Source of the DNA: Candidatus Limnocylindria bacterium
GTDB taxonomy: Bacteria; Chloroflexota; Limnocylindria; QHBO01
DNA length: 64,000 bases
Assembly: GCA_036556985.1 (NCBI GenBank)
Contig: DATBIK010000007.1
Span: 4,000 to 67,999 of the forward strand
Direction of reading: 5' to 3'
Under the pieces are notes generated by a model. That model searched no databases and had not been told where the DNA came from. It saw nothing but the letters and a program-made list of their open reading frames with translations. The first letter of the stretch is position 1. The number at the start of each line of letters is the position of its first letter. Of the stretch, positions 420 through 42,122 are shown in pieces. The position numbers were made by a program, and so were the translations under genes.

Positions 420-1490
420 TCAGGCCGGCGCTGCCGGCAGCCGGAACCAGATGGAGGTGCGCCCGTCGGCTGAGGCCGCGCCGACCTGGCCGCCGTGGGC
501 CTCCACGATCTGGCGCACGATCGCCAGGCCGATCCCCGCGCCGCCGCTGACGCGGGCCCGCGAGGGGTCGACGCGATGGAGCCGCTCCCAGATGAGCGGC
601 AGCTCGTCGGGCGGGATGTCGGCGCCGGTGTTCTCGACCGCGCAGCGCACCCAGCCGCCCTCCTCGCGGAGTCGGACCACGATCTCGCCGCCATCGTCGG
701 TGTAGCGCGCCGCGTTCTGCATGAGGTTGCTGAGGACCTGGCCGACCGCGTCCGGCTCGGCCAGCAGACGAGGGAGAGACGCGGGATCCTCGACCCGGAT
801 GGCAATTCGCCGGCTGGCAAGCTCCGGGGACTGGATCGCCACGGCCCGCTCGACGAGGGCGGCGAGGTCCACTTCTCCGCGGGCCTGCTCCCGGTGGCCG
901 GCCTCGCCGCGCGCCAGCTGGTCGAGCCCCTCCACCAGCCGCGTGAGCCGGACGATCTCCTCGTGGACGGTGCGGAGCATCTCCGGCGTGGGCTCGACCA
1001 CGCCATCGGCCATCGCTTCCAGGTAGCCCTGGAGCGAGGTGAGCGGCGTGCGCAGCTCGTGCGCCACGTCCTCGACGAGGGCGCGGCGCAGCTCCTCGAC
1101 ACGCTGCAGCGTGGCGGCCATGGCGTTGAAGGCATCGGTCAGGCGCTGGAGCTCGGGATCGGGGGCGGCCGGGACACGGGCGGCGAGGTCGCCGCTGGCG
1201 ATGGCGCGCGAGGCATCGGCCATGCGGTCGAGCGGGCGGAGGATCCGGCGCAGGAGCCACCAGGCGGCCAGTCCGCCGAGGACGACCCCCACCCCCGCGC
1301 CGAGAAGCAGGACCTGGCCGACGTACTCGTCGAACATCGCCTGGGCCTCCGCCTCGGAGGCGCCGGCCTCCATGGCGAGGTGCATGATCTGCGCCGATCC
1401 GAAGCGGTGCACGGCGAGGATCATGACGCCGGCAACCACGAGGGCCATGAGCGCCCACAGGCCGATGAGACGGACCCGGAGCGTGGGCAT
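420..1490 (-). CDS. sensor histidine kinase (HAMP-HisKA-HATPase)
   Basis: TM-HAMP region, H-box HELRTPLTSLQGY, N/G boxes (NLMQNA, GGAGIGLAIV); probable start MPTLRVRL at 1490, 13 nt after the upstream regulator. Confidence 0.85.
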   Translation of the reverse strand: MPTLRVRLIGLWALMALVVAGVMILAVHRFGSAQIMHLAMEAGASEAEAQAMFDEYVGQVLLLGAGVGVVLGGLAAWWLLRRILRPLDRMADASRAIASGDLAARVPAAPDPELQRLTDAFNAMAATLQRVEELRRALVEDVAHELRTPLTSLQGYLEAMADGVVEPTPEMLRTVHEEIVRLTRLVEGLDQLARGEAGHREQARGEVDLAALVERAVAIQSPELASRRIAIRVEDPASLPRLLAEPDAVGQVLSNLMQNAARYTDDGGEIVVRLREEGGWVRCAVENTGADIPPDELPLIWERLHRVDPSRARVSGGAGIGLAIVRQIVEAHGGQVGAASADGRTSIWFRLPAAPA

Positions 1491-1503
1491 CGCGGCGCTC
1501 CGG

Positions 1504-2220
1504 TTAGCCTGCCGGGGCGGGCTCGCGGCGCTCGACCGGCGCAACGAACTTGTAGCCGACGGTGCGCACCGTGGCGATCCAGCGGGGAGCGGCGGCATCG
1601 TCACCCAGCTTCCGGCGCAGCCGCCCGAGGTGGACGTCGATCGTCCGGTCGATGATCCCCGGGTCGTCCATGCCGTGGATCGCGTCGATGAGGTCGTCGC
1701 GGGTGAAGACCCGGCCGGGGCGCTGCATGAGGCCGCGCAGGATGCGGAACTCGAACGGCGTGAGATCGAGCGAGCGTCCGTCGAGGCGCGCCTCGACCGC
1801 GTTCGGGTCGACTTCGAGCGAGCCGGCGACCAGGATCGGCTCCTCGCGGTCCTCCTCGAGCCGCCGCCGGCGGAGGAGCGCCCGCACCCGGGCCATGAGC
1901 TCGCGGGGGCTGAATGGCTTCACGACGTAGTCGTCGGCGCCCATGTCCAGGCCGATGACCTTGTCGCCCTCGCCGCTCCGCGCGGTGAGCAGCAGGATCG
2001 GCACGTCCGAGTCGTCGCGGATGCGGCGGCAGACCTCGAAGCCGTCGAGGCCGGGGAGCATGACGTCGAGGAGGACGAGGTCCGGCCGCTGGCGGAGCGC
2101 GGCGTCCAGGGCGGCCTCGCCATCGGCCGCGAACAGCGCCCGGTGTCCCTCGCGCTCGACGTACACGCGCAGGAGGTCGCGAATCTTCGCGTCGTCGTCG
2201 ACGAGGAGGACCGTGGCCAT
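1504..2220 (-). CDS. OmpR-family response regulator
   Basis: MATVLLVDDD receiver with phospho-acceptor D and winged-helix C-terminus (TVRTVGYKF); ATG at 2220 chosen over the upstream extended ORF. Confidence 0.9.
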   Translation of the reverse strand: MATVLLVDDDAKIRDLLRVYVEREGHRALFAADGEAALDAALRQRPDLVLLDVMLPGLDGFEVCRRIRDDSDVPILLLTARSGEGDKVIGLDMGADDYVVKPFSPRELMARVRALLRRRRLEEDREEPILVAGSLEVDPNAVEARLDGRSLDLTPFEFRILRGLMQRPGRVFTRDDLIDAIHGMDDPGIIDRTIDVHLGRLRRKLGDDAAAPRWIATVRTVGYKFVAPVERREPAPAG

Positions 2221-2387
2221 GGCCCGCACAGTATGTCTTCCGCGTGAAGGACCGATGAAGTGGGCGTTCGGTGCTGCGCGGGGCTCACCGAACGCAACCG
2301 CAGCGCTGGGAGGGCCGGCCGGCATGCTCTGAGCGGTCGCATCGGCAGGGGACACCCGAGCGCCGATCCACGTAACATTGGCCGCCC

Positions 2388-2690
2388 ATGACACGCGACC
2401 GGGCAGCGGGGGCCATCGGGTTCGGCTCCGGCACCTCCGACGACCACAAGGACGGCATCCGCTGGGTTGACTACGCCAACATCAGCTGGAACCCGGTCTT
2501 CTGCAAGCGCTGCGACATCTGTGTCGAGATCTGCCCCAAGGACACGCTCGTCCTGCGCAACGACGCGATCATCGAAGAGGAGAACTGCATCCTCTGCGGC
2601 CTGTGCGAGCGGTACTGCCCCGACCTGGCGATCGAGATGATCCCGTCGGCCGTCGCCGCCCACGAGGCGCGAAAGGGAGACGCCGGGTGA
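2388..2690 (+). CDS. 2-oxoacid:ferredoxin oxidoreductase delta subunit (2x[4Fe-4S] ferredoxin)
   Basis: Two CxxCxxCxxxCP motifs (CKRCDICVEICP, CILCGLCERYCP); stop overlaps next start (GTGA). Confidence 0.8.
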   Translation: MTRDRAAGAIGFGSGTSDDHKDGIRWVDYANISWNPVFCKRCDICVEICPKDTLVLRNDAIIEEENCILCGLCERYCPDLAIEMIPSAVAAHEARKGDAG

Positions 2691-3826
2691 CGCGCCGTCT
2701 GACCCAGGGCAACGAGGCGGTATTCCGCGGGGCGATCGCCGCCGGGGCGACCTACTACGCCGGCTACCCGATCTCGCCGTCCACCGAGATATTGAACGTC
2801 GCCTCCGGCTGGGCCGCCGATCATCCCGAGTTCCGATTCCTCCAGGCGGAGGACGAGATCGCGAGCGCGAACGCGATCATCGGCGCGTCGCTGGCGGGTG
2901 CCAAGGCGTTCACCGCCACGAGCGGGCCGGGGTTCAGCCTCATGCAGGAGGCGGTCGGCTATGCGCAGAAGGTCGGCGTGCCATGCGTCTTCGTCAACGT
3001 CCAGCGGGTCGGGCCCGCCACCGGGATGCCGACCATGCCCGGCCAGGGCGACGTGATGCAGGTGCGCTACGGCAGCACCGGTGACTACACTCCCATCGCC
3101 TTCTACCCGAACGGCGTGGAGGAGGCATTCCGGGTCACGATGCAGGCCTTCAACGCCGCGGAGGAGTCTCTCAGCCCGGTCGTGCTCCTCTCCGACACCT
3201 TCGTCGCGCACCTCAACGAGGTCGTCGACCTGGACGCGCTGGCCGAGGGGATGTCGGTCGTCGAGCGGGCCGTGCCGCCGCTGGGCCAACATGACGCCGG
3301 GAAGCCGCGGTTCTTCGCCGGCGTGCTCATGTACGAGCACGGGCCGAACGCCGGAGAGCCCGCCACCGCCGACGCCGACGAGTACCTGCGCCAGTTCTAC
3401 GCTGCCAAGCAGCGCCACCTCGAGGTTGCGCGGCGCTATGCCCTGTACGAGCACGGCTGGAACGTGGACGCCAGTGTCCTGATCATCGCCTACGGCATCG
3501 TCTCGCGCGTGGCGGCGCCGCTCGCCCCGGACTATGCCCTGTTCCGCCCGATCCGCATCCACCCGGTGCTCGGCGACGAGCTGCGGGCGGTCGCCGACCG
3601 CTACGAGCAGGTTGTCTGCATCGAGGCCAACGACGGGCAGTACGCCGACCTCGCGCAGCTCGCGCTGGGGCGGGAGGTGAAGCGGGTGCCATTGCTCGGC
3701 GGCCGGATCAGCCTCGAGGCGGTGCGCGACGGCCTCGAGCGGGTGCTCGCCGGCGGGTCCGGTGATCCGCCGATCCCGCCCGCGCCGAGCGAGCACCAGC
3801 CGCGATCGCCGCTGGGCGTCGGGTAG
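2687..3826 (+). CDS. 2-oxoacid:ferredoxin oxidoreductase alpha subunit
   Basis: GNEAVFRGAIAAGATYYAGYPISPSTEI...TSGPGFSLMQEAVGYA typical of the POR/KOR alpha N-terminus; GTG start overlapping the delta-subunit stop. Confidence 0.85.
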   Translation: MTRRLTQGNEAVFRGAIAAGATYYAGYPISPSTEILNVASGWAADHPEFRFLQAEDEIASANAIIGASLAGAKAFTATSGPGFSLMQEAVGYAQKVGVPCVFVNVQRVGPATGMPTMPGQGDVMQVRYGSTGDYTPIAFYPNGVEEAFRVTMQAFNAAEESLSPVVLLSDTFVAHLNEVVDLDALAEGMSVVERAVPPLGQHDAGKPRFFAGVLMYEHGPNAGEPATADADEYLRQFYAAKQRHLEVARRYALYEHGWNVDASVLIIAYGIVSRVAAPLAPDYALFRPIRIHPVLGDELRAVADRYEQVVCIEANDGQYADLAQLALGREVKRVPLLGGRISLEAVRDGLERVLAGGSGDPPIPPAPSEHQPRSPLGVG

Positions 3827-33581: not shown

Positions 33582-34268
33582 CTACTCCTCGAAGGGAAGT
33601 GCCCGCTCGACCGCGTCCCAGCCGGCCGCCAGCATGCGGCGCACGGTGGCGGGATCGCGGACCGGCGGGTGGTCCGGGGCGATGAGCGCGCCGGCCAGTG
33701 CCGGCAGCAGCGGTGAGAGGCCGAAGGAGGCCGCCACGAGCGCGTCACCGGCATGTGGGCCGTCGACGATCTCATACAGGGTCTCCTGCTCGAGCGTGTC
33801 GTAATGCACCCAGTACGGGTCGGTGACGGTGAGCCGATGCAGCCGCGTCCCCGCCACCAGCCGGCGCGACTCCGGCGTGGCGGGCAGCTCCGGCGCGCCC
33901 GCGTACCAGGCATGGTGCCTGGCCTGCTCCCGCTGCAGGCTGTCGGTCCAGCCCTCCCACCACGTCGCGCGTCGCGGCTCCGCCGGGTCGAGCGACAGGT
34001 TGGCGAGCACCACGAACGCGTGCGGCTCGTGCGACACGCCGGCGCAGCGCTCGTCGCAGCGCGGAAGGAAGCGCCGTGCCAGCTCGCCGATGGCGAGTCG
34101 CGCGCCCAGCCAGATGCTCGACGCCGCGGGGTGCGACTGGAGCGCCTCGGGGTTCACCAGCGCGACGACCTGCTCCCCCTCACGCATGCGATCGACCGCG
34201 ACCGAGAACGCCCGGTAGGCGTCGCGCGCGGCCGTCAGCCGGCTCGGGGGCAGCACACTGCGGGTCAT
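33582..34268 (-). CDS. hypothetical protein
   Basis: ORF with good codon bias; start taken at MTRSVLPP; no recognised domain; shares the palindrome-bearing divergent promoter with the operon below. Confidence 0.4.
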   Translation of the reverse strand: MTRSVLPPSRLTAARDAYRAFSVAVDRMREGEQVVALVNPEALQSHPAASSIWLGARLAIGELARRFLPRCDERCAGVSHEPHAFVVLANLSLDPAEPRRATWWEGWTDSLQREQARHHAWYAGAPELPATPESRRLVAGTRLHRLTVTDPYWVHYDTLEQETLYEIVDGPHAGDALVAASFGLSPLLPALAGALIAPDHPPVRDPATVRRMLAAGWDAVERALPFEE

Positions 34269-34377
34269 GCTCGCTATGTGACCAAGCGCGACCGGTACTT
34301 GGCAACTACCACTATCCTCACCGCAGCCCACGGGTCCGCACGAATGGCACGCCACGCGGCCCTTCTGGGGCCTACTG

Positions 34378-34399
34378 GCACCGGTACCCGGGTACCGGT
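34378..34399. promoter_or_regulatory. 22-bp perfect palindrome CACCGGTACCCGGGTACCGGTG (candidate operator), plus a solo half-site ACCGGTAC ~85 bp upstream
   Basis: Read directly in the sequence; lies in the 200-bp divergent intergenic region 34269-34470. Confidence 0.5.
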
Positions 34400-34470
34400 G
34401 TGCGCCCACCCCGCGGTCAGCCGGCCACCCGGTTGCGCCCCGCGGGGGCGCCGCGTACCGTGGCCCGACC

Positions 34471-35391
34471 ATGGACCGAGCGCTCGTCGACTGGTACCGC
34501 CGCTTTCCCGAGGGATGGTGGGGTTACCACTGGACGCTGCCGACCCCGATGAGCGCCGTGGAGATCGTCGCATCCGGCAGCCTCGACGCGCGCCTGATGG
34601 CAACCCTGTGGGCCGTGGTCGCGCGGCGTCGCGGCGTGATGCTCGCCAGCGAGGCGCCCCAAGCCGGCAAGACGACGACGCTCTCCGCCCTGGTCGACTT
34701 CCTTCCGGACGAGACGGTGGGCGTCTTCCTGCGCGGCTGGGCGCAGGACATGTCCTGGACCGATGAGATCGGCCCCGATCGCGGCTACCTGCTCGTGAAC
34801 GAGCTGAGCGACCACCTGCCGATCTACGTGTGGGGCTCGAACGCGCGGGACGCCCTGCGCCTGGCCGGCAGCGGCTACGGCCTGGGGGCCACCATGCACG
34901 CCGACTCCCTCGACGAGGCGCTGGACTGCCTGCGCGACGAGCTGCGAGCCAGCGACGCCGACCTGGCCGGGATGACCGTCTACCTCCAGTACTCGGCCTA
35001 TCGCACGCCAGCCGGCATGTACCGGCGCGTCGAGGAGGCCTGGCACCTGCGGACCGATGCGTCCGGGCGCCTCGCGCCCGTCCGGCTGGCGGCCCTCGAG
35101 GGCGGCCGCTCGCCGAGCCTGACCGGGGCGCAGCGGCTGCCCGTCCCGCCAATGCTGTCGGACGACGGAGGCCGCGGCGCCCGTCGCCTCGTCCACGACC
35201 CGGACGCATACGCGGTGCTGGCCGCCAGCCTGGGCCTGGCTGCCGAGGCCCTCGAGCGCGAGCTCTCCGAGCGGGCGACGTACCTGGCGACGCTCGAGCA
35301 GCGTGGGCTATGCGGCCCCGCCGAGGTGGCGTTCGCGGCCCGCTACTATCCGGACCTGCCCCCGAACCGATCCCAAGGAGCCGGCGCATGA
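34471..35391 (+). CDS. CpaF/TadA/VirB11-family P-loop ATPase core domain only (partly degenerate)
   Basis: Walker A EAPQAGKTTTLSALVDFLP aligns to secretion-ATPase GTGSGKTTLLNAL..IP; downstream LLVNELSD...ATMHADSLDEALDCL aligns to the Walker-B/His-box region (His box reads SGY); no N-terminal domain. Confidence 0.6.
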   Translation: MDRALVDWYRRFPEGWWGYHWTLPTPMSAVEIVASGSLDARLMATLWAVVARRRGVMLASEAPQAGKTTTLSALVDFLPDETVGVFLRGWAQDMSWTDEIGPDRGYLLVNELSDHLPIYVWGSNARDALRLAGSGYGLGATMHADSLDEALDCLRDELRASDADLAGMTVYLQYSAYRTPAGMYRRVEEAWHLRTDASGRLAPVRLAALEGGRSPSLTGAQRLPVPPMLSDDGGRGARRLVHDPDAYAVLAASLGLAAEALERELSERATYLATLEQRGLCGPAEVAFAARYYPDLPPNRSQGAGA

Positions 35392-36803
35392 CTCAGCCCC
35401 CCGCCATCACCACCCTCGGCGCGCTGCGCGATGCGGGCTACCGCCCCCGCAGCGTGAAGGAGGAGATGCGCGCGAACCTCGTCCGCCGCCTGCGCGACGG
35501 CGAGCCGCTGCTGCCCGGCATCCTCGGCTACGACGACACCGTGCTGCCCCAGATCGAGAACGCAGTGCTCGCCGGGCAGGACATCATCCTCCTCGGGGAG
35601 CGGGGCCAGGCGAAGAGCCGCATCGCCCGATCGCTCGTCGGCCTCCTCGACGAGTGGGTCCCGGAGCTGGCCGGTGCCGAGCTGCACGACGACCCGCTGC
35701 GCCCGGTGAGCCCGTACGCCCACGACCTCGTGCGGGAGCGCGGCGATGAGGCGCCGGTGGCCTGGCTGCACCGGGGCGCCCGCTACGGCGAGAAGCTGGC
35801 AACCCCGGACATCACGATCGCCGATCTCGTCGGCGAGGTCGACCCGGTCAAGGTCGCAGAGGGCCGCTATCTGTCCGACGCGCTCACCATCCACTACGGC
35901 CTGCTGCCACGCACGAACCGGGGCATCTTCGCGCTGAACGAGCTGCCGGACCTCGCCGAGCGGATCCAGGTCGGCCTCCTCAACGTGATGGAAGAGCGCG
36001 ACGTCCAGATCCGTGGCTACAAGGTGCGGCTCGAGCTCGACCTGTTCGTCATCGCCTCGGCCAACCCGGAGGACTACACCAGCCGCGGCCGGATCATCAC
36101 CCCGTTGAAGGACCGCTTCGGGGCCCAGATCCGGACCCACTACCCGGATGACCCGGAGGTGGAGATCGCCATCGTGGAGGCCGAGCGGACGACGTTCGCC
36201 GACGACGCGGCGACATCGGTCCCGGTCCAGGTGCCAGGCTTCATGCGCGAGGTCGTGGCGGAGCTGTCCCAGCTCGCCCGCCGCTCGTCCGAGGTCAGCC
36301 AGCGTTCCGGCGTCAGCGTGCGCGTCACGATCGCGAACCAGGAGACGCTCCTGGCCGCCGCGCTGAAGCGCGCGGTGCGCCTGGGCGAGCCCGTCGCGGC
36401 GCCGCGCATCAGCGACCTTCCGGCGGTCGTGGCCTCGACCGCGGGCAAGATCGAGCTCGAGACGCTCGGCGACGAGACGCGCGAGGACAAGGTCATCGAG
36501 AAGCTCGTGCAGCGCGCGATCGTGAACGTCTTCAACCGCCACTTCACGCTGTCCGAGCTGGTGCCGCTCGTCGAGCGCTTCGAGGCCGGGGCCGAGGCCG
36601 AGGTGGGGGAGCTCGTCGCCAGCGATCGCCACGAGCGGCTCGTGGCGGAGATCGACGAGCTGCGCCGCGCGGTCGGCCACCTCGACGTCGGGGAGTCGCC
36701 GGCCGGCGTCGCGAGTGGCGTGGAGTTCGTGCTCGAGGGGCTGCACCTGAACCGCCGCCTGAACAAGGAGCGCCGCGGCGGCGGGGTTCGCTACGCGCGG
36801 TAG
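35388..36803 (+). CDS. Mg-chelatase ChlI-like AAA+ ATPase
   Basis: ILGYDDTVLPQIENAVLAGQDIILLGERGQAKSRIARSL (ChlI-type Walker A GExGxAKS), NELPDL Walker B, sensor regions; ATGA overlap with the upstream gene. Confidence 0.8.
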   Translation: MTQPPAITTLGALRDAGYRPRSVKEEMRANLVRRLRDGEPLLPGILGYDDTVLPQIENAVLAGQDIILLGERGQAKSRIARSLVGLLDEWVPELAGAELHDDPLRPVSPYAHDLVRERGDEAPVAWLHRGARYGEKLATPDITIADLVGEVDPVKVAEGRYLSDALTIHYGLLPRTNRGIFALNELPDLAERIQVGLLNVMEERDVQIRGYKVRLELDLFVIASANPEDYTSRGRIITPLKDRFGAQIRTHYPDDPEVEIAIVEAERTTFADDAATSVPVQVPGFMREVVAELSQLARRSSEVSQRSGVSVRVTIANQETLLAAALKRAVRLGEPVAAPRISDLPAVVASTAGKIELETLGDETREDKVIEKLVQRAIVNVFNRHFTLSELVPLVERFEAGAEAEVGELVASDRHERLVAEIDELRRAVGHLDVGESPAGVASGVEFVLEGLHLNRRLNKERRGGGVRYAR

Positions 36804-36807
36804 GCCG

Positions 36808-37260
36808 ATGGCCGCGGACCCCTTCCCGACCGCGCGCTTTGCCGCGCTGGTCCGCCGCCTGCCGGCCTACGGCCGGCTCGCCTGGCGTCTCGGCCGCGAT
36901 CCGCGGCTGAGCGGCGGGCGCCGCGCCGCGGTGCTGGGCGCGGCCGCCTACCTCGCCTCGCCCCTCGACCTCGTGCCGGGGATCATCCCCTTCGCCGGCC
37001 AGCTCGACGACGCCGCGGTCACGCTGCTCGGGCTGCGCTTCGCGCTGCGCGGTCTGCCGGCTGCGGAACAGGCGGCGCACCTGTCGGCCGCGGGCCTGGC
37101 AGCCCGGGACATCGACGACGACCTCGTCACGGTCGGGGCCGGCGCCGCCTGGCTCGCCCGACGCGGTGCCTCGCTCGCGGCGCGCGGCGGTCGCGCTGTC
37201 GGCCGTGCCGCCTGGCGGGCGGCGCGGGGCGGCGCACGGCGCCTGGCGCACCGCGGATGA
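36808..37260 (+). CDS. DUF1232-like (YkvA-like) membrane protein
   Basis: LDLVPGIIPFAGQLDDAAV matches the DUF1232 core; Arg/Ala-rich tail. Confidence 0.5.
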   Translation: MAADPFPTARFAALVRRLPAYGRLAWRLGRDPRLSGGRRAAVLGAAAYLASPLDLVPGIIPFAGQLDDAAVTLLGLRFALRGLPAAEQAAHLSAAGLAARDIDDDLVTVGAGAAWLARRGASLAARGGRAVGRAAWRAARGGARRLAHRG

Positions 37261-37850
37261 CCGACGCCGACCCGGTCAACGTCCGCCTCGCCGACCCGAG
37301 CGGGGACGCCGCGGCGGTGGCCGCCATCTACGCCGATGGCGTGGAGCGCACGGTCGCGTCGTTCGAGGAGGTCGCGCCCACGGCCGCAAAGATGGCCGAG
37401 CGCATGCGGCGCATCCTGGAGCGCACGCCGTGGCTCGTGGCCTGTGGGCCTGACGGCAGGGTCGTCGGCTACGCCTACGCCGGCCCGCACCACGCACGAC
37501 CCGGCTACCGCTGGTCGGTGAACCTGTCCGCCTACGTGGCGGACGGGCAGCGCGGCAGGGGCATCGGTCGTCGCCTGTACGCCGAGCTCCTCGACCTGCT
37601 GCGGCGACAGGGATTCGTGAACGCCTACGCGGGCGTCACGCTGCCGAATCCGGCCAGTGAGCGCCTCCACCAGGCGATCGGCATGCAGCGCTTCGCCGTC
37701 TACCGGCGGGTCGGCTACAAGTTCGGCGCCTGGCACGACGTGGCCTGGTACGAGCTCCGCCTCGCCTCCCCTCCGGGACGGCCTGCCGAGCCGGTCGCGC
37801 TGCCGGACCTCGCCGGAGGACCGATGGACGCCGCCCGCGGATCGGCCTAG
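37257..37850 (+). CDS. GNAT acetyltransferase (phosphinothricin-acetyltransferase-like)
   Basis: QRGRGIGRRLYAELLDLLRRQGFVNAYAGVTLPNPASERLHQAIGM; ATGA overlap upstream. Confidence 0.75.
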   Translation: MTDADPVNVRLADPSGDAAAVAAIYADGVERTVASFEEVAPTAAKMAERMRRILERTPWLVACGPDGRVVGYAYAGPHHARPGYRWSVNLSAYVADGQRGRGIGRRLYAELLDLLRRQGFVNAYAGVTLPNPASERLHQAIGMQRFAVYRRVGYKFGAWHDVAWYELRLASPPGRPAEPVALPDLAGGPMDAARGSA

Positions 37851-37863
37851 GCTGGCGCGCACG

Positions 37864-39897
37864 ATGGGCACCTTCCGCTACTCGCGCTGGGACGGCAGCC
37901 AGCAGCTGCCGCCGTTCGACGCGGACGACGTGCTCGAGGCGCTGTCGGACGACCTGCTGGCCGAGGGCGACGTACGCCGCGCGCTCCAGCGCCTCATGCA
38001 GCGCGGCATGCGTGGCACGCGCGGCGGCGACGTGCAGGGCCTTCGACGGATCGTCGACCGCCTGCGGGAGCGCCGGCAGGTCGAGCTCGAGCGCGCCCAC
38101 CTGGACGGCGTGCTCGACGGCCTCGCCGAACGGCTGGCGGAGATCATCGACCAGGAGCGCGGCGGCATCGAGCGGCGGCTGCAGGAGGCGGAGCGGACCG
38201 CGCTCGACGCGCCGCCGGGTGAGGGCCAGGACCGGGCGCGGATGGCCGAACAGGTGCTCCGGCGCGCCGCGCAGCAGCGCCGCGATCGGCTCGACGCGCT
38301 CCCGCCGGACCTGGCCGGCCGGCTCGGAGGCCTGCGCGACTACGAGTTCATGGATCCCGGCGCGCGCGACGCCTTCAACGCCCTCACCGACGAGCTTCGC
38401 CAGCAGCTCCTGCAGACCTACTTCCAGGGCCTCAAGGAGGGCGTCGCGGGGCTGACGCCGGACGACCTGGACGGCGTGCGCGAGATGGTCCGCGACCTGA
38501 ATGCACTCCTCGAGAAGCATGCCTCCGGCGCCGATACCCGGGCCGACTTCGAGCAGTTCATGGCGCGCCACGGACAGTACTTCCCGCCGGGAATCGGCAG
38601 CGTCGACGAGCTCATCGACCACCTCCATCGCCAGGCCTCGCAGATGGCCTCGCTGCTGGCCGGGATGAGCCCGCAGATGCGCGACGAGCTGCAGCGCATG
38701 ATGGACGACCTGCTGCGCGACGACCGGCTGCGCTGGGACATGGCGCGCCTGGCCGGCACGCTTCAGGCGCTGCGACCTGACCTGCCGTTCGGCGAGCCGT
38801 ACCCGTTCAGCGGCGACGAGCCGATGGGCCTCGTCGAAGCGCTCGCCGCCATCGACCGCCAGCAGCAGTACGACGCGCTCGGCGAGGAGCTGTCCGGCGT
38901 GCGCGATCCAGCCGCGCTCGAGCGCCTCGACCGGGAGCTGCTGCGCGACCTCGGCGGGGACGATGCCGCCGACGAGCTCGACCGGCTGCGGGAGATCTCG
39001 CGTGCGCTGGAGGATGCCGGCTACCTGGAGAGCGACAGAGGGCGCCTGGAGCTCACCCCGCGTGCCGCGCGCAAGCTCGGGATGCGGGCCCTGACCGACA
39101 TCTTCAGCCGCCTGCGGCGCGAGTCGCTCGGCGGGCACCCGCTGCCGGTCGCCGGTGGCGGCGGCGAGCCGACAGACGAGACGAAAATGTACGAGCACGG
39201 CGACCCGTTCGTGCTGGACCTGAACCGAACGCTCTTCAACGCCATGGCCCGCGGGGGCGCCGGCACGCCGGTGGCGCTGGCTCCGGAGGACTTCGAGGTA
39301 CGGCGCTCCGAGGAGACGACGGTCTCGTCGACCGTCCTCCTCCTGGACATGAGCCGCTCGATGCTCCTGCGGGGCTGCTCGACCGCGGCAAAGCGAGTGG
39401 CGATGGCGCTCCACACGCTCATCCACACGAAGTACCCGCGCGACCGGCTGTACGTCGTCGGCTTCGCCTACTACGCCCGCCAGATCAAGCCGGAAGCGAT
39501 CGCCACGCTCTCGCCGTACGAGTTCGAGTACGGCACGAACCTGCAGCACGCGCTCCAGATCGCCCGGCAGCTGCTCGGCCGGCGGGCCGGCGGCAACAAG
39601 GAGATCGTCGTCATCACCGATGGCGAGCCGACCGCCCACATCGCCAACGGCCAGGTCGAGTTCGCGTATCCGCCCACCATCCGCACCATGCAGTCCACGC
39701 TGCGCGAGGTCGGTCGGGCGACGCGGGAGGGGATCGTCATCAACACCTTCATGCTCGAGCGCTCTCGCTACCTGTCCGACTTCGTCGACCTCATGAGCCG
39801 CATCAACCGCGGTCGGGCCTTCTACGTCGAGCCCGAGCACCTCGGCGAGTACGTCCTCGTCGACTACGTGAGCAAGAAGACGAAGCGCGTCGCCTGA
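37864..39897 (+). CDS. von Willebrand factor A (VWA) domain protein, 678 aa, with long helical N-terminal region
   Basis: C-terminal VWA: VLLLDMSRSM (MIDAS DxSxS)...VVITDGEPT; partner of the ChlI-like ATPase. Confidence 0.8.
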   Translation: MGTFRYSRWDGSQQLPPFDADDVLEALSDDLLAEGDVRRALQRLMQRGMRGTRGGDVQGLRRIVDRLRERRQVELERAHLDGVLDGLAERLAEIIDQERGGIERRLQEAERTALDAPPGEGQDRARMAEQVLRRAAQQRRDRLDALPPDLAGRLGGLRDYEFMDPGARDAFNALTDELRQQLLQTYFQGLKEGVAGLTPDDLDGVREMVRDLNALLEKHASGADTRADFEQFMARHGQYFPPGIGSVDELIDHLHRQASQMASLLAGMSPQMRDELQRMMDDLLRDDRLRWDMARLAGTLQALRPDLPFGEPYPFSGDEPMGLVEALAAIDRQQQYDALGEELSGVRDPAALERLDRELLRDLGGDDAADELDRLREISRALEDAGYLESDRGRLELTPRAARKLGMRALTDIFSRLRRESLGGHPLPVAGGGGEPTDETKMYEHGDPFVLDLNRTLFNAMARGGAGTPVALAPEDFEVRRSEETTVSSTVLLLDMSRSMLLRGCSTAAKRVAMALHTLIHTKYPRDRLYVVGFAYYARQIKPEAIATLSPYEFEYGTNLQHALQIARQLLGRRAGGNKEIVVITDGEPTAHIANGQVEFAYPPTIRTMQSTLREVGRATREGIVINTFMLERSRYLSDFVDLMSRINRGRAFYVEPEHLGEYVLVDYVSKKTKRVA

Positions 39898-39935: not shown

Positions 39936-40850
39936 ATGCCACGTCCCCTGAAGGTCGGCGTCCAGCTGCCCGAGGTCGAGTACGTCGCCAGCTGGGAGCA
40001 GCAGCTCGCCATGGCCCGTACCGCCGAGCAGATCGGCCTTGACTCGGTGTGGGTCGGCGACCACCTCCTCTATCGCGACGACGGCAAGCCGACCCGCGCG
40101 CCGTGGGAGGCGTGGACCACGCTGGCGGCGCTGGCGGCGGTGACGCGGCGGGTGGAGATCGGGCCGCTCGTGGCGGCGACGAGCTTCCACAACCCCGCGA
40201 TGCTCGCCAAGAAGGCGGCCACCATCGATGAGATCAGCGGCGGGCGGCTCATCCTCGGGCTGGGGGCCGGCTGGAACCGCGTCGAGTACGAGGCCTACGG
40301 CTTCGCCTTCGACCATCGGGTCAGCCGCTTCGAGGAGGCCTTCACGATCATCCGCGAGCTGCTCCGCGAGGGCCGCTCCGACTTCCACGGCGCGTACTAC
40401 CAGCTCGACGACTGCGTCCTGCTGCCCCGCGGACCCCGCTCCGATGGCCCGCCGCTCATGGTCGGCTCTGAGGGGCCGCGCATGCTCGGCATCACGCTGC
40501 CGCACGTGGACGCCTGGAACGCGTGGTTCACCTGGTTCGGCAACACGCCGGACGGCTATCGTCCGATGCGGGCGCGCATCGACGAGGCCTGCCGCGCTGC
40601 GGGCCGCGACCCGTCCGAGGTCGAGCGCACGGTGGCCCTGTTCGTCGCCTTCCCCGGTGCCCAGGGACGGAGCCTGGGCGACCTGGCCGACCCCGACGTG
40701 GAGGCGATCAGCGGCGAGCCGGCGGTCCTCGTGGAGCACCTGCGTGCCTTTGCCGAGGAAGGGGTGAGCCACGTCCAGCTCGTCCTGGACCCGATCACCG
40801 CCGACACGATCGGCGCCCTGCGGCCCACCCTCGAACGGCTCGACGCCTGA
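39936..40850 (+). CDS. LLM-class (luciferase-like) flavin/F420-dependent oxidoreductase
   Basis: LKVGVQLP...DSVWVGDHL...LGLGAGW motifs of the luciferase-like monooxygenase family. Confidence 0.8.
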   Translation: MPRPLKVGVQLPEVEYVASWEQQLAMARTAEQIGLDSVWVGDHLLYRDDGKPTRAPWEAWTTLAALAAVTRRVEIGPLVAATSFHNPAMLAKKAATIDEISGGRLILGLGAGWNRVEYEAYGFAFDHRVSRFEEAFTIIRELLREGRSDFHGAYYQLDDCVLLPRGPRSDGPPLMVGSEGPRMLGITLPHVDAWNAWFTWFGNTPDGYRPMRARIDEACRAAGRDPSEVERTVALFVAFPGAQGRSLGDLADPDVEAISGEPAVLVEHLRAFAEEGVSHVQLVLDPITADTIGALRPTLERLDA

Positions 40851-40876
40851 GCCGCGCTGGTATCCTCGCCCACGGA

Positions 40877-41245
40877 ATGGACGAGCTTCCCCCGTCGATC
40901 CCGCTCGGCGCCACCGGGCGCCTCGCGGTCCAGCCGCTGGTGAACGCCACCGGCGATCACGCGCTCCTCGTGCGCGAGGGAGACGCGAGCCGCGCGCTCA
41001 TCACCGGCGAGGCGGCGTCGGGCCGCGATCGCATCGTGGTCGTGCCGCTCGACGACGACGTCGAGCTGCGGGTCGACGGCGACGCGCTCGCGGTGTGGCT
41101 GGCCCGCGGATCGGTGAGCACCTCGGTCGCCCGCGTGCCGGGCTGGGCCAGCGCCATCGGGCTCGTCCTGGTCATCGGCTTCGTCGCCTTCGCGGTCATC
41201 GGCTCGGCGACCGCGTTCGGCTGGCTGCTCGACGTCCTGCGCTGA
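40877..41245 (+). CDS. hypothetical protein with C-terminal TM helix
   Basis: 122-aa ORF, coding-like composition, C-terminal WASAIGLVLVIGFVAFAVIGSATAFGWLL. Confidence 0.35.
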   Translation: MDELPPSIPLGATGRLAVQPLVNATGDHALLVREGDASRALITGEAASGRDRIVVVPLDDDVELRVDGDALAVWLARGSVSTSVARVPGWASAIGLVLVIGFVAFAVIGSATAFGWLLDVLR

Positions 41246-41256
41246 CGGATGGACCG

Positions 41257-41553
41257 ATGAAGCGCGTAGAGCCGCCGGCCGCCGGGCTCATCGCGATGCG
41301 GATCACCGCCGAGTACGGCTCGCCGGACGGCTTCACCGAGACGCTCGAGCGCGCGCTCACCCGCGGCGGGGAGCGGGGGGCGACCGTCGTCGCCGTCCTC
41401 GACCGCGGCGACCTGGCGATCCACATCCCCCGCGAGGACGGCCCCAGCTGGAACACCGTCCCGCTCGTGCACGTCCACCGCGGCCAGGCCCCCGACAGCG
41501 GGGACTGGGCGGCTGCCAACGCCGTGCTGGAGAAGCTCGAGCGCTACCGGTGA
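41257..41553 (+). CDS. hypothetical small protein (98 aa)
   Basis: ATG 12 nt after the previous stop; stop overlaps the flavin reductase start (GTGA). Confidence 0.35.
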   Translation: MKRVEPPAAGLIAMRITAEYGSPDGFTETLERALTRGGERGATVVAVLDRGDLAIHIPREDGPSWNTVPLVHVHRGQAPDSGDWAAANAVLEKLERYR

Positions 41554-42122
41554 GCGACGACCTGGGTGCCGTCCTCCGTCGCTTCGAGCGCGCCCCGGCC
41601 GGCGCCAGTGTCGAGCCCATCAGCGACGAGCAGCAGCGCCTCCTGCGCTCGATGATGGCCCGCTTCGCGACCGGCGTGACGATCGTGGCCGCGCGCCATG
41701 GCCCGCTCCTGGCGGGGATGACCGCCAACGCCATCGCCAGCATCAGCATCAACCCGCCGCTCATGCTGGCCAGCATCGGCCAGCGCTCGGAGACGCACTC
41801 CGCCATTCATGGCAGCCACTCGTTCGCGATCAGTGTCCTGGCCGACACCCAGCGGGCGGTGGCCGACTGCTTCGCGCAGTCGACGACCGCCGCCAAGCTC
41901 CAGCGCTTCTGCGACGCGCCGTGGCACGAGGGCGAGACGGGCTCGCCGATCCTGGACGGCGCGATCGCCTACTTCGACTGCCGCCTCGTGGCCAGCCATG
42001 CCGGCGGAGACCACACGATCTTCATCGGCGAGATCGTGGGTGCAGGCTACGATGAGGCCGCCCAGCCGCTGGTCTGGTACGGCTCGCGCTACCGGCAGCT
42101 CTCGCCGGAGGAGCCGGCCTAG
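41550..42122 (+). CDS. NAD(P)H-dependent flavin reductase (FMN-binding split-barrel)
   Basis: RFATGVTIVAA...GMTANAIASISINPPLMLASI typical flavin-reductase-domain pattern. Confidence 0.8.
   Translation: MSDDLGAVLRRFERAPAGASVEPISDEQQRLLRSMMARFATGVTIVAARHGPLLAGMTANAIASISINPPLMLASIGQRSETHSAIHGSHSFAISVLADTQRAVADCFAQSTTAAKLQRFCDAPWHEGETGSPILDGAIAYFDCRLVASHAGGDHTIFIGEIVGAGYDEAAQPLVWYGSRYRQLSPEEPA

Follow-up and report, generated by a model that had tools for sequence, protein, structure and literature searches.

Gene layout of the locus

The DNA analysed here is a stretch of 64,000 nucleotides (72% G+C; the window) from contig DATBIK010000007.1 of a Candidatus Limnocylindria bacterium. It holds five co-directional open reading frames (ORFs) on the + strand, three of which form a conserved module (Table 1). 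These three encode P1 (the product of 34471-35391), a P-loop protein related to the ATPases of pili and archaella, a ChlI-like AAA+ ATPase, and a protein ending in a VWA domain. The other two, for a DUF1232 protein and a GNAT acetyltransferase, lie between the AAA+ and VWA genes. In each of the five, the G+C content at third codon positions (GC3) is 0.90-0.96, as expected of real genes at 72% G+C. The P1 and AAA+ genes overlap by 4 nt (35388-35391, with stop and start codons sharing ATGA), the DUF1232 gene follows the AAA+ gene after 4 nt and overlaps the GNAT gene by 4 nt, and 13 nt separate the GNAT and VWA genes. An earlier account of this DNA, made from its letters (the sequence-only reading), had listed the same co-directional ORFs, coordinates and tight spacing, which the coordinates and the GC3 bias confirm; its length of 678 aa for the VWA protein is corrected to 677 aa, codon 678 being the stop. 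Searches of Pfam and NCBIfam also back four of its five domain calls (AAA_5/ChlI-like, DUF1232, GNAT, and VWA_2). A promoter and terminator scan, uninformative at this G+C content, returned no + strand terminator-like site inside the cluster, which is compatible with a single transcript, short of proof.

The actinobacterial origin assumed in the sequence-only reading is not borne out, since the closest homologues and the syntenic genomes belong to Limnocylindria/Chloroflexota. The best homologues of P1 are 75-93% identical to it and come from soil metagenomes and metagenome-assembled genomes (MAGs), the named ones being mostly Candidatus Limnocylindria or Chloroflexota. The genome collection was scanned with an 8-sequence alignment as the query, and the best 80 genome matches are mostly Limnocylindria/Chloroflexota MAGs in which the genes flanking the cluster on either side are ordered as in the window. 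A few of these 80 are labelled Steroidobacteraceae, Dormiibacterota, or Angelobacter; their identity to the window protein is 69-77%, and they are probably mis-binned.

P1 belongs to a stand-alone family related to archaeal GspE and FlaI

The assignment of P1 comes from profile and fold comparisons, because Pfam is silent: at E≤0.01 no Pfam model matches it, T2SSE (PF00437) included. Precomputed PF00437 matches occur in some distant members of the P1 family only, and these are faint where graded. Direct comparisons of P1 gave only short matches around the P-loop, to the NCBIfam FlaI model (27 bits vs a cut-off of 550) and, in the PDB, to archaeal GspE (E=2e-4) and FlaI. A profile built from 60 sequences of the P1 family reaches GspE from A. 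fulgidus (afGspE, PDB code: 2OAP) at E=1e-31 and FlaI at E=1e-21, in both cases in the C-terminal domains only. Along the 511-residue afGspE chain, this profile covers residues 232-294 and 344-502, corresponding to the C-terminal ATPase domain and the C-terminal helical subdomain, and P1 starts ~25 residues ahead of the position matching residue 232. Moreover, P1 has the fold of the C-terminal RecA-like ATPase domain, its AlphaFold model being of high quality (predicted local distance difference test, pLDDT, 92; predicted template modelling score, pTM, 0.92).

In the secretion-ATPase superfamily, the N-terminal domain packs against the neighboring subunit and builds the hexameric motor. This domain is missing from P1 and from its whole family. 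When 1.84 billion representative proteins were searched exhaustively with HMMER, 525 clusters (50% identity) were recovered at E≤1e-3, in which intact members measure 250-320 aa and shorter entries are fragments; therefore, P1 represents a family of stand-alone proteins and not a truncated gene. P1 is thus a core-only relative of the secretion and pilus ATPases, nearest to archaeal GspE and FlaI and closer to them than to CpaF or VirB11. The sequence-only reading had seen a truncated, CpaF/VirB11-like ATPase without its N-terminal domain and had made its proposal hang on kinship with secretion ATPases. That kinship, the core-only character and the missing domain stand, whereas the term truncated is withdrawn and the nearest relatives, by profile and fold, are the archaeal ones.

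The motifs AGKTTTLSAL..LP and SGY, on which that first assignment was based, are both present in the P1 translation. Conservation was counted over 339 family members. In the P-loop, G66 is found in 337 and K67 in 335 of them, and T/S68 and T69 are almost as constant. K67, E111, S113, Y119, G135, and H143 are each kept in 98-99% of the members (E111 in 336/339), and H115, W121, and G122 in 96-97%. The register of Walker B depends on the method, given that MAFFT pairs LLVNE of P1 with ILVGE of an archaeal type IV pilus (T4P) ATPase and BLAST gives another one. The MAFFT register was preferred because E111 then ends a predicted beta strand, which in the model spans residues 105-109 and is followed by N110-E111. 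With the register taken from MAFFT and the model, P1 carries both the Walker A Lys and the Walker-B Glu.

Other defining elements are changed. Compared with afGspE and FlaI (PDB codes: 4II7 and 4IHQ), P1 has lost the N-terminal domain and ~25 residues before Walker B. It has gained, after Walker B, a conserved insertion of ~8 residues, SxHLPxYxW, in which S113, H115, Y119, W121, and G122 are near-invariant (the NExSxHLPxYxWG loop). The Asp box (ExDxxE) is absent, since IED is replaced by LRG at this position, with a single acidic residue at 92 or 93. Also, the His box does not have its two His: it reads S-G-Y...T-M-H-A, with the first His changed to Tyr (Y136, Tyr or Phe family-wide, in 325/339) and only the second, H143, kept (333/339). 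As judged from the alignments, the nucleotide site of P1 is under strong constraint, although of the four classical catalytic boxes two are gone, as is the N-terminal domain.

Whereas afGspE and FlaI belong with secretion or pilus machinery, P1 is encoded with an AAA+/VWA pair, and no gene for a platform protein (GspF, TadB/C, or FlaJ), a pilin, or a secretin was found among the genes scanned at ~28.6-46.5 kb of the window or in the related loci. Such genes are present in the archaeal control (L097, from Natronorubrum bangense plasmid NZ_CP031309.1). P1 is therefore related to the secretion ATPases, yet it fails several defining features of a working one. At 1231-3540, the control locus holds a type IV pilus ATPase gene, adjoining TadC-like and pilin genes, that matches P1 better than any other archaeal sequence of the plasmid collection. 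This gene appears frameshifted: its two domains, N- and C-terminal, lie in different frames, and the gene table lists no coding sequence for the C-terminal one.

In RefSeq, the P1 orthologue of Thermomicrobium roseum (locus L089; NC_011961.1, 494616-499076) is named 'type II secretion system protein E'. The name is probably misleading, because the N-terminal domain is missing. Gene fusions that could point to a partner of P1 (Rosetta-stone proteins) were sought and rejected, the longer matches P0207, P0266, and P0186 looking frameshifted or chimeric. The searched literature contained no account of P1-family proteins or of a linkage between them and an AAA+/VWA pair.

The AAA+ ATPase and its VWA partner

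The AAA+ protein is matched by AAA_5 (30 bits vs a cut-off of 22) and, in the PDB, by ChlI (8OSF, E=2e-8), and its family profile reaches BchI/ChlI at E~1e-10. By sequence and profile it is closest to BchI/ChlI, in accordance with the ChlI-type call made from the letters. Nine sequences ranging from Chloroflexota to Tsukamurella and Nonomuraea (alignment A5) are 51-65% identical to the window protein and share as invariant features GERGQ[A/G]K[S/T], ASANPED, RGRIITPLKDRFG, RSGVS, and a C-terminal EFxLEGLxLxR. In this alignment, seven of the eight residues of Walker A are invariant and position 75 is Ala or Gly. A comparison with 1G8P and 8OSF places Walker A, the sensor-1 motif (NPE/NPED) and LxDRFG/LKDRFG in the ChlI register. 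Walker B departs from the hhhhDE of ChlI/BchI, as N184-E185, invariant in the nine sequences, is aligned to IDEC of BchI and VDEV of ChlI. The motif hhhhNELPDL occupies the same column in the window, L082, L084-L087, and L089-L091, that is, from Chloroflexota to Actinobacteria. The curated ChlI/BchI models are not reached (Mg_chelatase, 17.7 vs 20.3 bits; TIGR02030, 31.9 vs 467), nor are those of the MoxR family (AAA_3, 23 vs 27 bits; bpMoxR, 18 vs 27). A conserved C-terminal extension of ~120 residues completes the protein.

RefSeq labels this AAA+ family 'sigma 54-interacting transcriptional regulator' (L089 and L090). These phyla are not known to have sigma-54. A role as sigma-54 activator was discarded, since the Sigma54_activat match is limited to residues 164-227, the generic AAA+ core, and for this reason the label is probably misleading. 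For the M. smegmatis orthologue, no DNA association has been found.

In the VWA protein, VWA_2 matches residues 490-588, within the last 190 residues. An N-terminal RYSRWDG motif, a long helical region and a variable charged linker precede the VWA domain. The residues D495, S497, S499, T558, and D586 of the metal ion-dependent adhesion site (MIDAS) are invariant both in an alignment of 8 sequences including Tsukamurella (A6) and in one of 41 further sequences (A7). This match and the DxSxS/T/D residues agree with the C-terminal VWA/MIDAS domain proposed in the sequence-only reading. In the AlphaFold2 model (pLDDT 75), the N-terminal 380 residues are all-helical and are followed by a small alpha/beta unit and then by the VWA domain, for which the closest solved fold is NorD in the cryo-electron microscopy complexes of NorQD. 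A protein of the collection that is 100% identical to it (P0435) carries PF27532 (Mb0984_helical), PF13519 (VWA_2), and PF27098 (Rv0959_3rd), and on this ground the VWA protein is placed in the Rv0959 family. Its homologues in L082, L084, L085, and L087 have the same Mb0984_helical, VWA, and Rv0959_3rd domains. The analogy with Rv0958/Rv0959 of M. tuberculosis, which the sequence-only reading had drawn, holds, since these Pfam domains are named after Rv0959/Mb0984.

Linkage of P1, AAA+ and VWA across genomes

The neighborhood set of Limnocylindria comprises 81 loci. Where enough downstream sequence is available, the AAA+ gene follows P1 in 74 of 78 of them, with the VWA gene following in 44 of 53. 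Because the genomes are broadly syntenic, such counts are weak evidence when taken alone. A stronger test is offered by distant relatives of P1, 33-45% identical and with unrelated flanking genes. Among these, P1, AAA+, and VWA occur together in at least five unrelated neighborhoods, including that of the cultured Thermomicrobium roseum DSM 5159 (Table 1), and P1 lies upstream of AAA+ on the same strand in every locus that holds both. Co-location in related genomes, on which the sequence-only reading depended for all five genes, is thus found for these three also in distant ones.

The pair is also found without P1, in Tsukamurella, Nonomuraea, and L096. In Tsukamurella, purN-purH are found upstream of the AAA+ gene, which overlaps that of the VWA protein. 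The P1 profile detects nothing in the actinobacterial loci L090 and L091, even at E≤10. A P1 hidden upstream of the actinobacterial pair was likewise discarded, as the P1 hidden Markov model (HMM) is negative and the 286-aa protein upstream in Tsukamurella is an HTH_67 protein. Since the pair exists without P1, it would be the ancestral engine and P1 an add-on. The AAA+/VWA pair is a widespread unit, and P1 is an addition seen only in Chloroflexota here, tightly but not absolutely linked. The sequence-only reading had described such pairs as conserved and functionally unassigned in Actinobacteria; they are present in Tsukamurella and Nonomuraea, and no function for them appears in the searched literature.

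That reading had also treated the five genes as one unit, of which the three genes for P1, AAA+, and VWA are conserved and those for DUF1232 and GNAT are not. Within Limnocylindria, DUF1232 occupies the gap between AAA+ and VWA in 10 of the 81 loci, and GNAT is found there only in the window and in L015 (1/81). Neither occurs in any of the distant loci whose sequenced stretch covers the interval. A conserved five-gene operon was ruled out on these counts and because the slot takes other inserts. The real unit is therefore one of three genes and not five, and DUF1232 and GNAT are passengers in a permissive gap.

Inserts and flanking genes

The DUF1232 protein is identified by PF06803 (E=2e-12). 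The GNAT protein scores 191 bits against NF040504 (ArsN1b; cut-off 210) and 120 bits against the phosphinothricin (PPT) acetyltransferase model, and is thus a detoxification-type enzyme embedded in an unrelated module. Other occupants of the gap are DoxX in L029 (10907-11392) and L047 (4380-4901), a two-transmembrane (2TM) protein in L092 (4134-4583), an opposite-strand gene in L070, and an insert of ~0.8 kb in Nonomuraea (L091, 7363-8187). Three of the inserts in this gap (36804-37863 in the window) are small membrane proteins, namely DUF1232, DoxX, and 2TM. Coincidence may account for it, or it may hint at an association with the membrane.

Upstream, an ORF on the - strand (33582-34472) encodes a conserved hypothetical protein, diverges from P1 and, as listed, overlaps its start by 2 nt; its product has no match in Pfam, NCBIfam, or PADLOC. 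The L001 homologue, called at 228 aa, makes Met69 (near 34268) the probable true start, which leaves a divergent intergenic region of ~200 nt. Downstream of the VWA gene, 39936-42122 encodes an F420/LLM-class oxidoreductase, two conserved hypothetical proteins of 122 and 98 aa without Pfam matches, and a flavin reductase. These genes keep the same order in most Limnocylindria loci and are absent from the distant loci; their presence is a matter of synteny rather than of module membership. In loci of the Thermomicrobia type, the VWA gene has a small hypothetical gene (87-121 aa, no Pfam match) immediately after it, in the same orientation. In a Limnocylindria subclade with P1 and AAA+ and no nearby VWA gene, a PAS-GGDEF-EAL protein is encoded just downstream of AAA+ (directly in L067 and L076).

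Table 1. Features of the module in the window and the loci in which it was compared
Feature	Sequence	Position	Strand	Length or residues	Remarks
P1 gene	window	34471-35391	+	306 aa	core member of the module
P1 Walker A/P-loop	window	34648-34677	+	residues 60-69	SEAPQAGKTT, aligned to GETASGKTT of afGspE
P1 Walker-B strand and signature loop	window	34783-34836	+	residues 105-122	GYLLVNELSDHLPIYVWG; E111 putative catalytic Glu
P1 degenerate His box	window	34870-34905	+	residues 134-145	SGYGLGATMHAD, aligned to STGHASYSTLHA of afGspE
AAA+ gene	window	35388-36803	+	471 aa	ChlI/BchI-like, helix-2-insert clade, Rv0958 type; core member
AAA+ Walker A	window	35595-35618	+	residues 70-77	GERGQAKS, aligned to GDRGTGKS of BchI/ChlI
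AAA+ Walker B	window	35925-35954	+	residues 180-189	IFALNELPDL; Asn for the usual Asp
DUF1232 gene	window	36808-37260	+	150 aa	YkvA-like small membrane protein; variable insert, non-core
GNAT gene	window	37257-37850	+	197 aa	phosphinothricin/arsinothricin-resistance-type N-acetyltransferase; passenger
VWA gene	window	37864-39897	+	677 aa (678 codons with stop)	Rv0959 family; core member
MIDAS DxSxS	window	39346-39360	+	D495-S497-S499	completed by G557-T558-N559 and T585-D586-G587
P1-AAA-VWA	L082 (Thermomicrobiaceae)
P1-AAA-VWA	L084, L087 (divergent Limnocylindria-like)
P1-AAA-VWA	L085 (Chloroflexota)
P1-AAA-VWA	L086 (unassigned)				peptidase gene between P1 and AAA
P1-AAA-VWA	L089 (cultured Thermomicrobium roseum DSM 5159)				TRD_RS11475, TRD_RS11480, TRD_RS11485 = P1, AAA+, VWA
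P1-AAA-VWA	L095 (unassigned)
P1-AAA	L092, L093/94 (short contigs)
Small gene after VWA	L082	12740-13003
Small gene after VWA	L089	9521-9886
Small gene after VWA	L095	8247-8540

Comparison with known AAA+/VWA systems

In NorQ/NorD and CbbQ/CbbO, a MoxR-class AAA+ protein works with a VWA adaptor in metal insertion or Rubisco activation. The window module resembles these systems in having adjacent genes for a helix-2-insert AAA+ and a VWA protein of ~600-750 aa with a MIDAS, and its VWA protein is built like NorD and CbbO, a helical region at the N-terminus being followed by a linker and, at the C-terminal end, by a MIDAS-bearing VWA domain and a conserved C-terminus. However, unlike NorQ and CbbQ, the AAA+ is nearer to ChlI/BchI than to MoxR and carries the C-terminal extension and the Walker-B Asn. 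Moreover, there is no adjacent client operon such as norCB or cbbLS, and the extra P-loop subunit P1 has no equivalent in those systems.

The module is also related to Rv0958/Rv0959 of M. tuberculosis, annotated as a 'possible magnesium chelatase' and a conserved hypothetical protein. Rv0959-type VWA domains and an adjacent orthologous ChlI-like AAA+ of ~460-470 aa are both present in the window; membership in this type rests on the domain names and a Mycobacteriales homologue. The AAA+ is 51% identical, over 96-99% of the length, to genes of Tsukamurella, Nocardia, and Nonomuraea. The difference lies in P1, which the actinobacterial loci lack. No function for Rv0958/Rv0959 was found in the searched literature.

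The only described case that we found of an archaeal-type T4P ATPase linked to an AAA+/vWA pair is that of thaumarchaeal type IV pilus loci associated with vWA (ArnB-type) and GvpN/MoxR ATPase pairs (Makarova et al. 2016, PMC4858521). In contrast to those loci, which hold a full-length ATPase, TadC, pilins, and a GvpN-like AAA+, the window has the catalytic domain of the ATPase only and a ChlI-like AAA+.

A proposed three-gene remodelling machine

Homology, conserved motifs and linkage of the genes were computed here; from them we infer a physical complex, the direction in which P1 and the pair would act on each other and the nature of the target. On balance, we consider it somewhat more probable than its opposite that the three genes encode a cytoplasmic, ATP-driven remodelling machine in the style of NorQD/CbbQO, with P1 as a third nucleotide-binding subunit specific to Chloroflexota. 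Taking the mechanism of NorQD as a template (PMC13036017), the AAA+ and VWA proteins would act like NorQ/NorD, CbbQ/CbbO, or BchI/BchD. The AAA+ would assemble as a hexameric ring, onto which the VWA protein would dock through its VWA domain and its conserved C-terminus, and the target protein would be held by the MIDAS site and the N-terminal helical region of the VWA protein. ATP hydrolysis would then pull or twist the VWA linker, and the strain would remodel the target, for example for cofactor insertion or the assembly or disassembly of a complex.

P1 would be the nucleotide-binding domain of an archaeal-type pilus or archaellum ATPase that, without the N-terminal domain, kept the P-loop Lys, the Walker-B Glu, and the second His of the His box and gained the conserved loop. 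In Chloroflexota the machine would have P1 as its dedicated third subunit: P1 would act on the AAA+/VWA pair as a nucleotide-gated regulator or adaptor, or else be its client. In known AAA+/VWA systems, the client gene is often a neighbor of the pair. A more specific version, in which P1 is an undescribed family that was exapted by a ChlI-like AAA+/VWA machine and became its obligate third subunit, forming a second stacked nucleotide-binding ring or a nucleotide-gated switch, is possible but tentative, and we would not yet put our weight on it.

Alternative explanations

Several observations weigh against the three-gene machine. General synteny could explain much of the linkage within Limnocylindria. 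Neither ATPase activity is assured, that of P1 because the Asp box and the first His of the His box are lost and that of the AAA+ because the Walker-B Asp is replaced by Asn. A Limnocylindria subclade (L060, L067, L076, and L081) has P1 and AAA+ with no VWA gene within 5.5 kb. Furthermore, P1 persists without an adjacent AAA+, and may therefore have a function of its own: with intact motifs it stands alone in L088 and lacks an adjacent AAA+ in four Limnocylindria loci (L034, L048, L068, and L074), where the VWA gene is also gone if enough downstream sequence is available. In a Sphaerobacter sp. MAG (L083, 8001-14141), P1 is not beside an Rv0958/Rv0959-type pair and lies 690 nt upstream of PrkA (AAA_PrkA), DUF444/YeaH (VWA-like), and SpoVR, a different conserved operon of AAA+/VWA type. 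All these solitary copies, together with the pairs that lack P1 in Actinobacteria and L096, would be expected if P1 were an independent small nucleotide-binding protein and its adjacency an inherited gene order, with no functional coupling. Since the adjacency survives a full turnover of flanking genes in at least five types of neighborhood, with P1 identity down to 33%, we regard this as unlikely, although it deserves attention. The overlap of stop and start codons in the window and the constant order and strand of P1 and AAA+ also speak against it.

The other explanations concern the nature of the machinery. A role for P1 as the ATPase in an apparatus for secretion, pilus formation, or DNA uptake is suggested by its homology to GspE/FlaI/PilB/CpaF and by the RefSeq name in T. 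roseum; given the family-wide loss of the N-terminal domain, the loss of two catalytic elements and the lack of platform, pilin, and secretin genes in the scanned surroundings, it is scarcely credible, and so is a decayed remnant of such an ATPase in view of the strong purifying conservation of P1. A motor of the I/D type for an ATP-dependent metal chelatase, inserting Mg or Co into a tetrapyrrole with P1 as an incidental neighbor, is very unlikely. BchI/ChlI come nearest to the AAA+ in sequence (sharing Walker A GxRGxxKS, the NPEx sensor 1, and LxDRFG), the charged linker and C-terminal MIDAS VWA domain of the partner recall BchD/ChlD, and TIGR02442 (putative cobaltochelatase) weakly matches both proteins. 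Also, in M. marinum a screen for B12 resistance recovered a transposon that had inserted 49 bp upstream of the Rv0958 orthologue (PMC11237697), an incidental result. Nevertheless, the scores fall far under the family cut-offs (38.7 vs 779 bits, and Mg_chelatase as given above), the N-terminus of the VWA partner is all-helical and lacks the AAA-like half of BchD/ChlD, and the Walker-B Asp is Asn. A GC3-based gene scan of the 64-kb window found no ORF >750 aa and thus no gene of the size of CobN or BchH, none being present in the other loci either, and the conserved linkage of P1 would be left unexplained. Finally, we hold it highly improbable that the module is a conflict or anti-phage system, NTP-dependent and of the MoxR-vWA ternary type, with P1 in the place of the inactive STAND NTPase of iSTAND. 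AAA+/vWA systems that have a P-loop protein as a third component have been described (Kaur et al. 2020, PMC7159879), the layout of AAA+, vWA protein, and derived P-loop NTPase is formally the same, and the catalytic motifs of P1 are partly degenerate. However, P1 descends from secretion ATPases and not from STAND, the AAA+ is ChlI-like and not MoxR, and no third component of the VMAP, iSTAND, FtsH, or beta-propeller kind was found. The VWA domain stands at the extreme C-terminus without an effector domain, in an architecture constant in 49 homologues, and the variable vWA-fused effectors and the mobility of those systems are missing. PADLOC yields weak generic AAA+ matches to RtcR models and no system. 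The module is single-copy within the window, its sequences are very highly conserved and not diversifying, and it lies in a syntenic metabolic neighborhood in Limnocylindria; in Mycobacteriales the pair is located near purN-purH. In this housekeeping context, the conflict or defence alternative of the sequence-only reading is set aside.

Implications

The AAA+/VWA class and the Rv0958/Rv0959 subfamily, the latter through its Pfam domain names, are already known; what seems to be new is the P1 family and its linkage to the pair. AAA+/VWA pairs (NorQD, CbbQO, CoxDE, BchID, and RavA-ViaA) are a recurring and mechanistically young class of remodelling and metal-insertion machines, and the pair of the Rv0958/Rv0959 type spans from Chloroflexota to Mycobacterium. 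P1, strictly ordered and often translationally coupled to this pair, offers a concrete hypothesis on what the pair binds or what controls it. The finding also corrects the annotations 'type II secretion system protein E' and 'sigma 54-interacting transcriptional regulator', and a secretion-motor ATPase domain that persists without its N-terminal domain or a secretion apparatus is a data point for the evolution of the superfamily. The hypothesis is testable because the triad is present in the cultured T. roseum DSM 5159. If P1 is indeed an obligate third subunit, the module would be a remodelling machine of three ATPase components without a characterized counterpart, and T. roseum would give the first experimental handle on the Rv0958/Rv0959 pair of M. 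tuberculosis.

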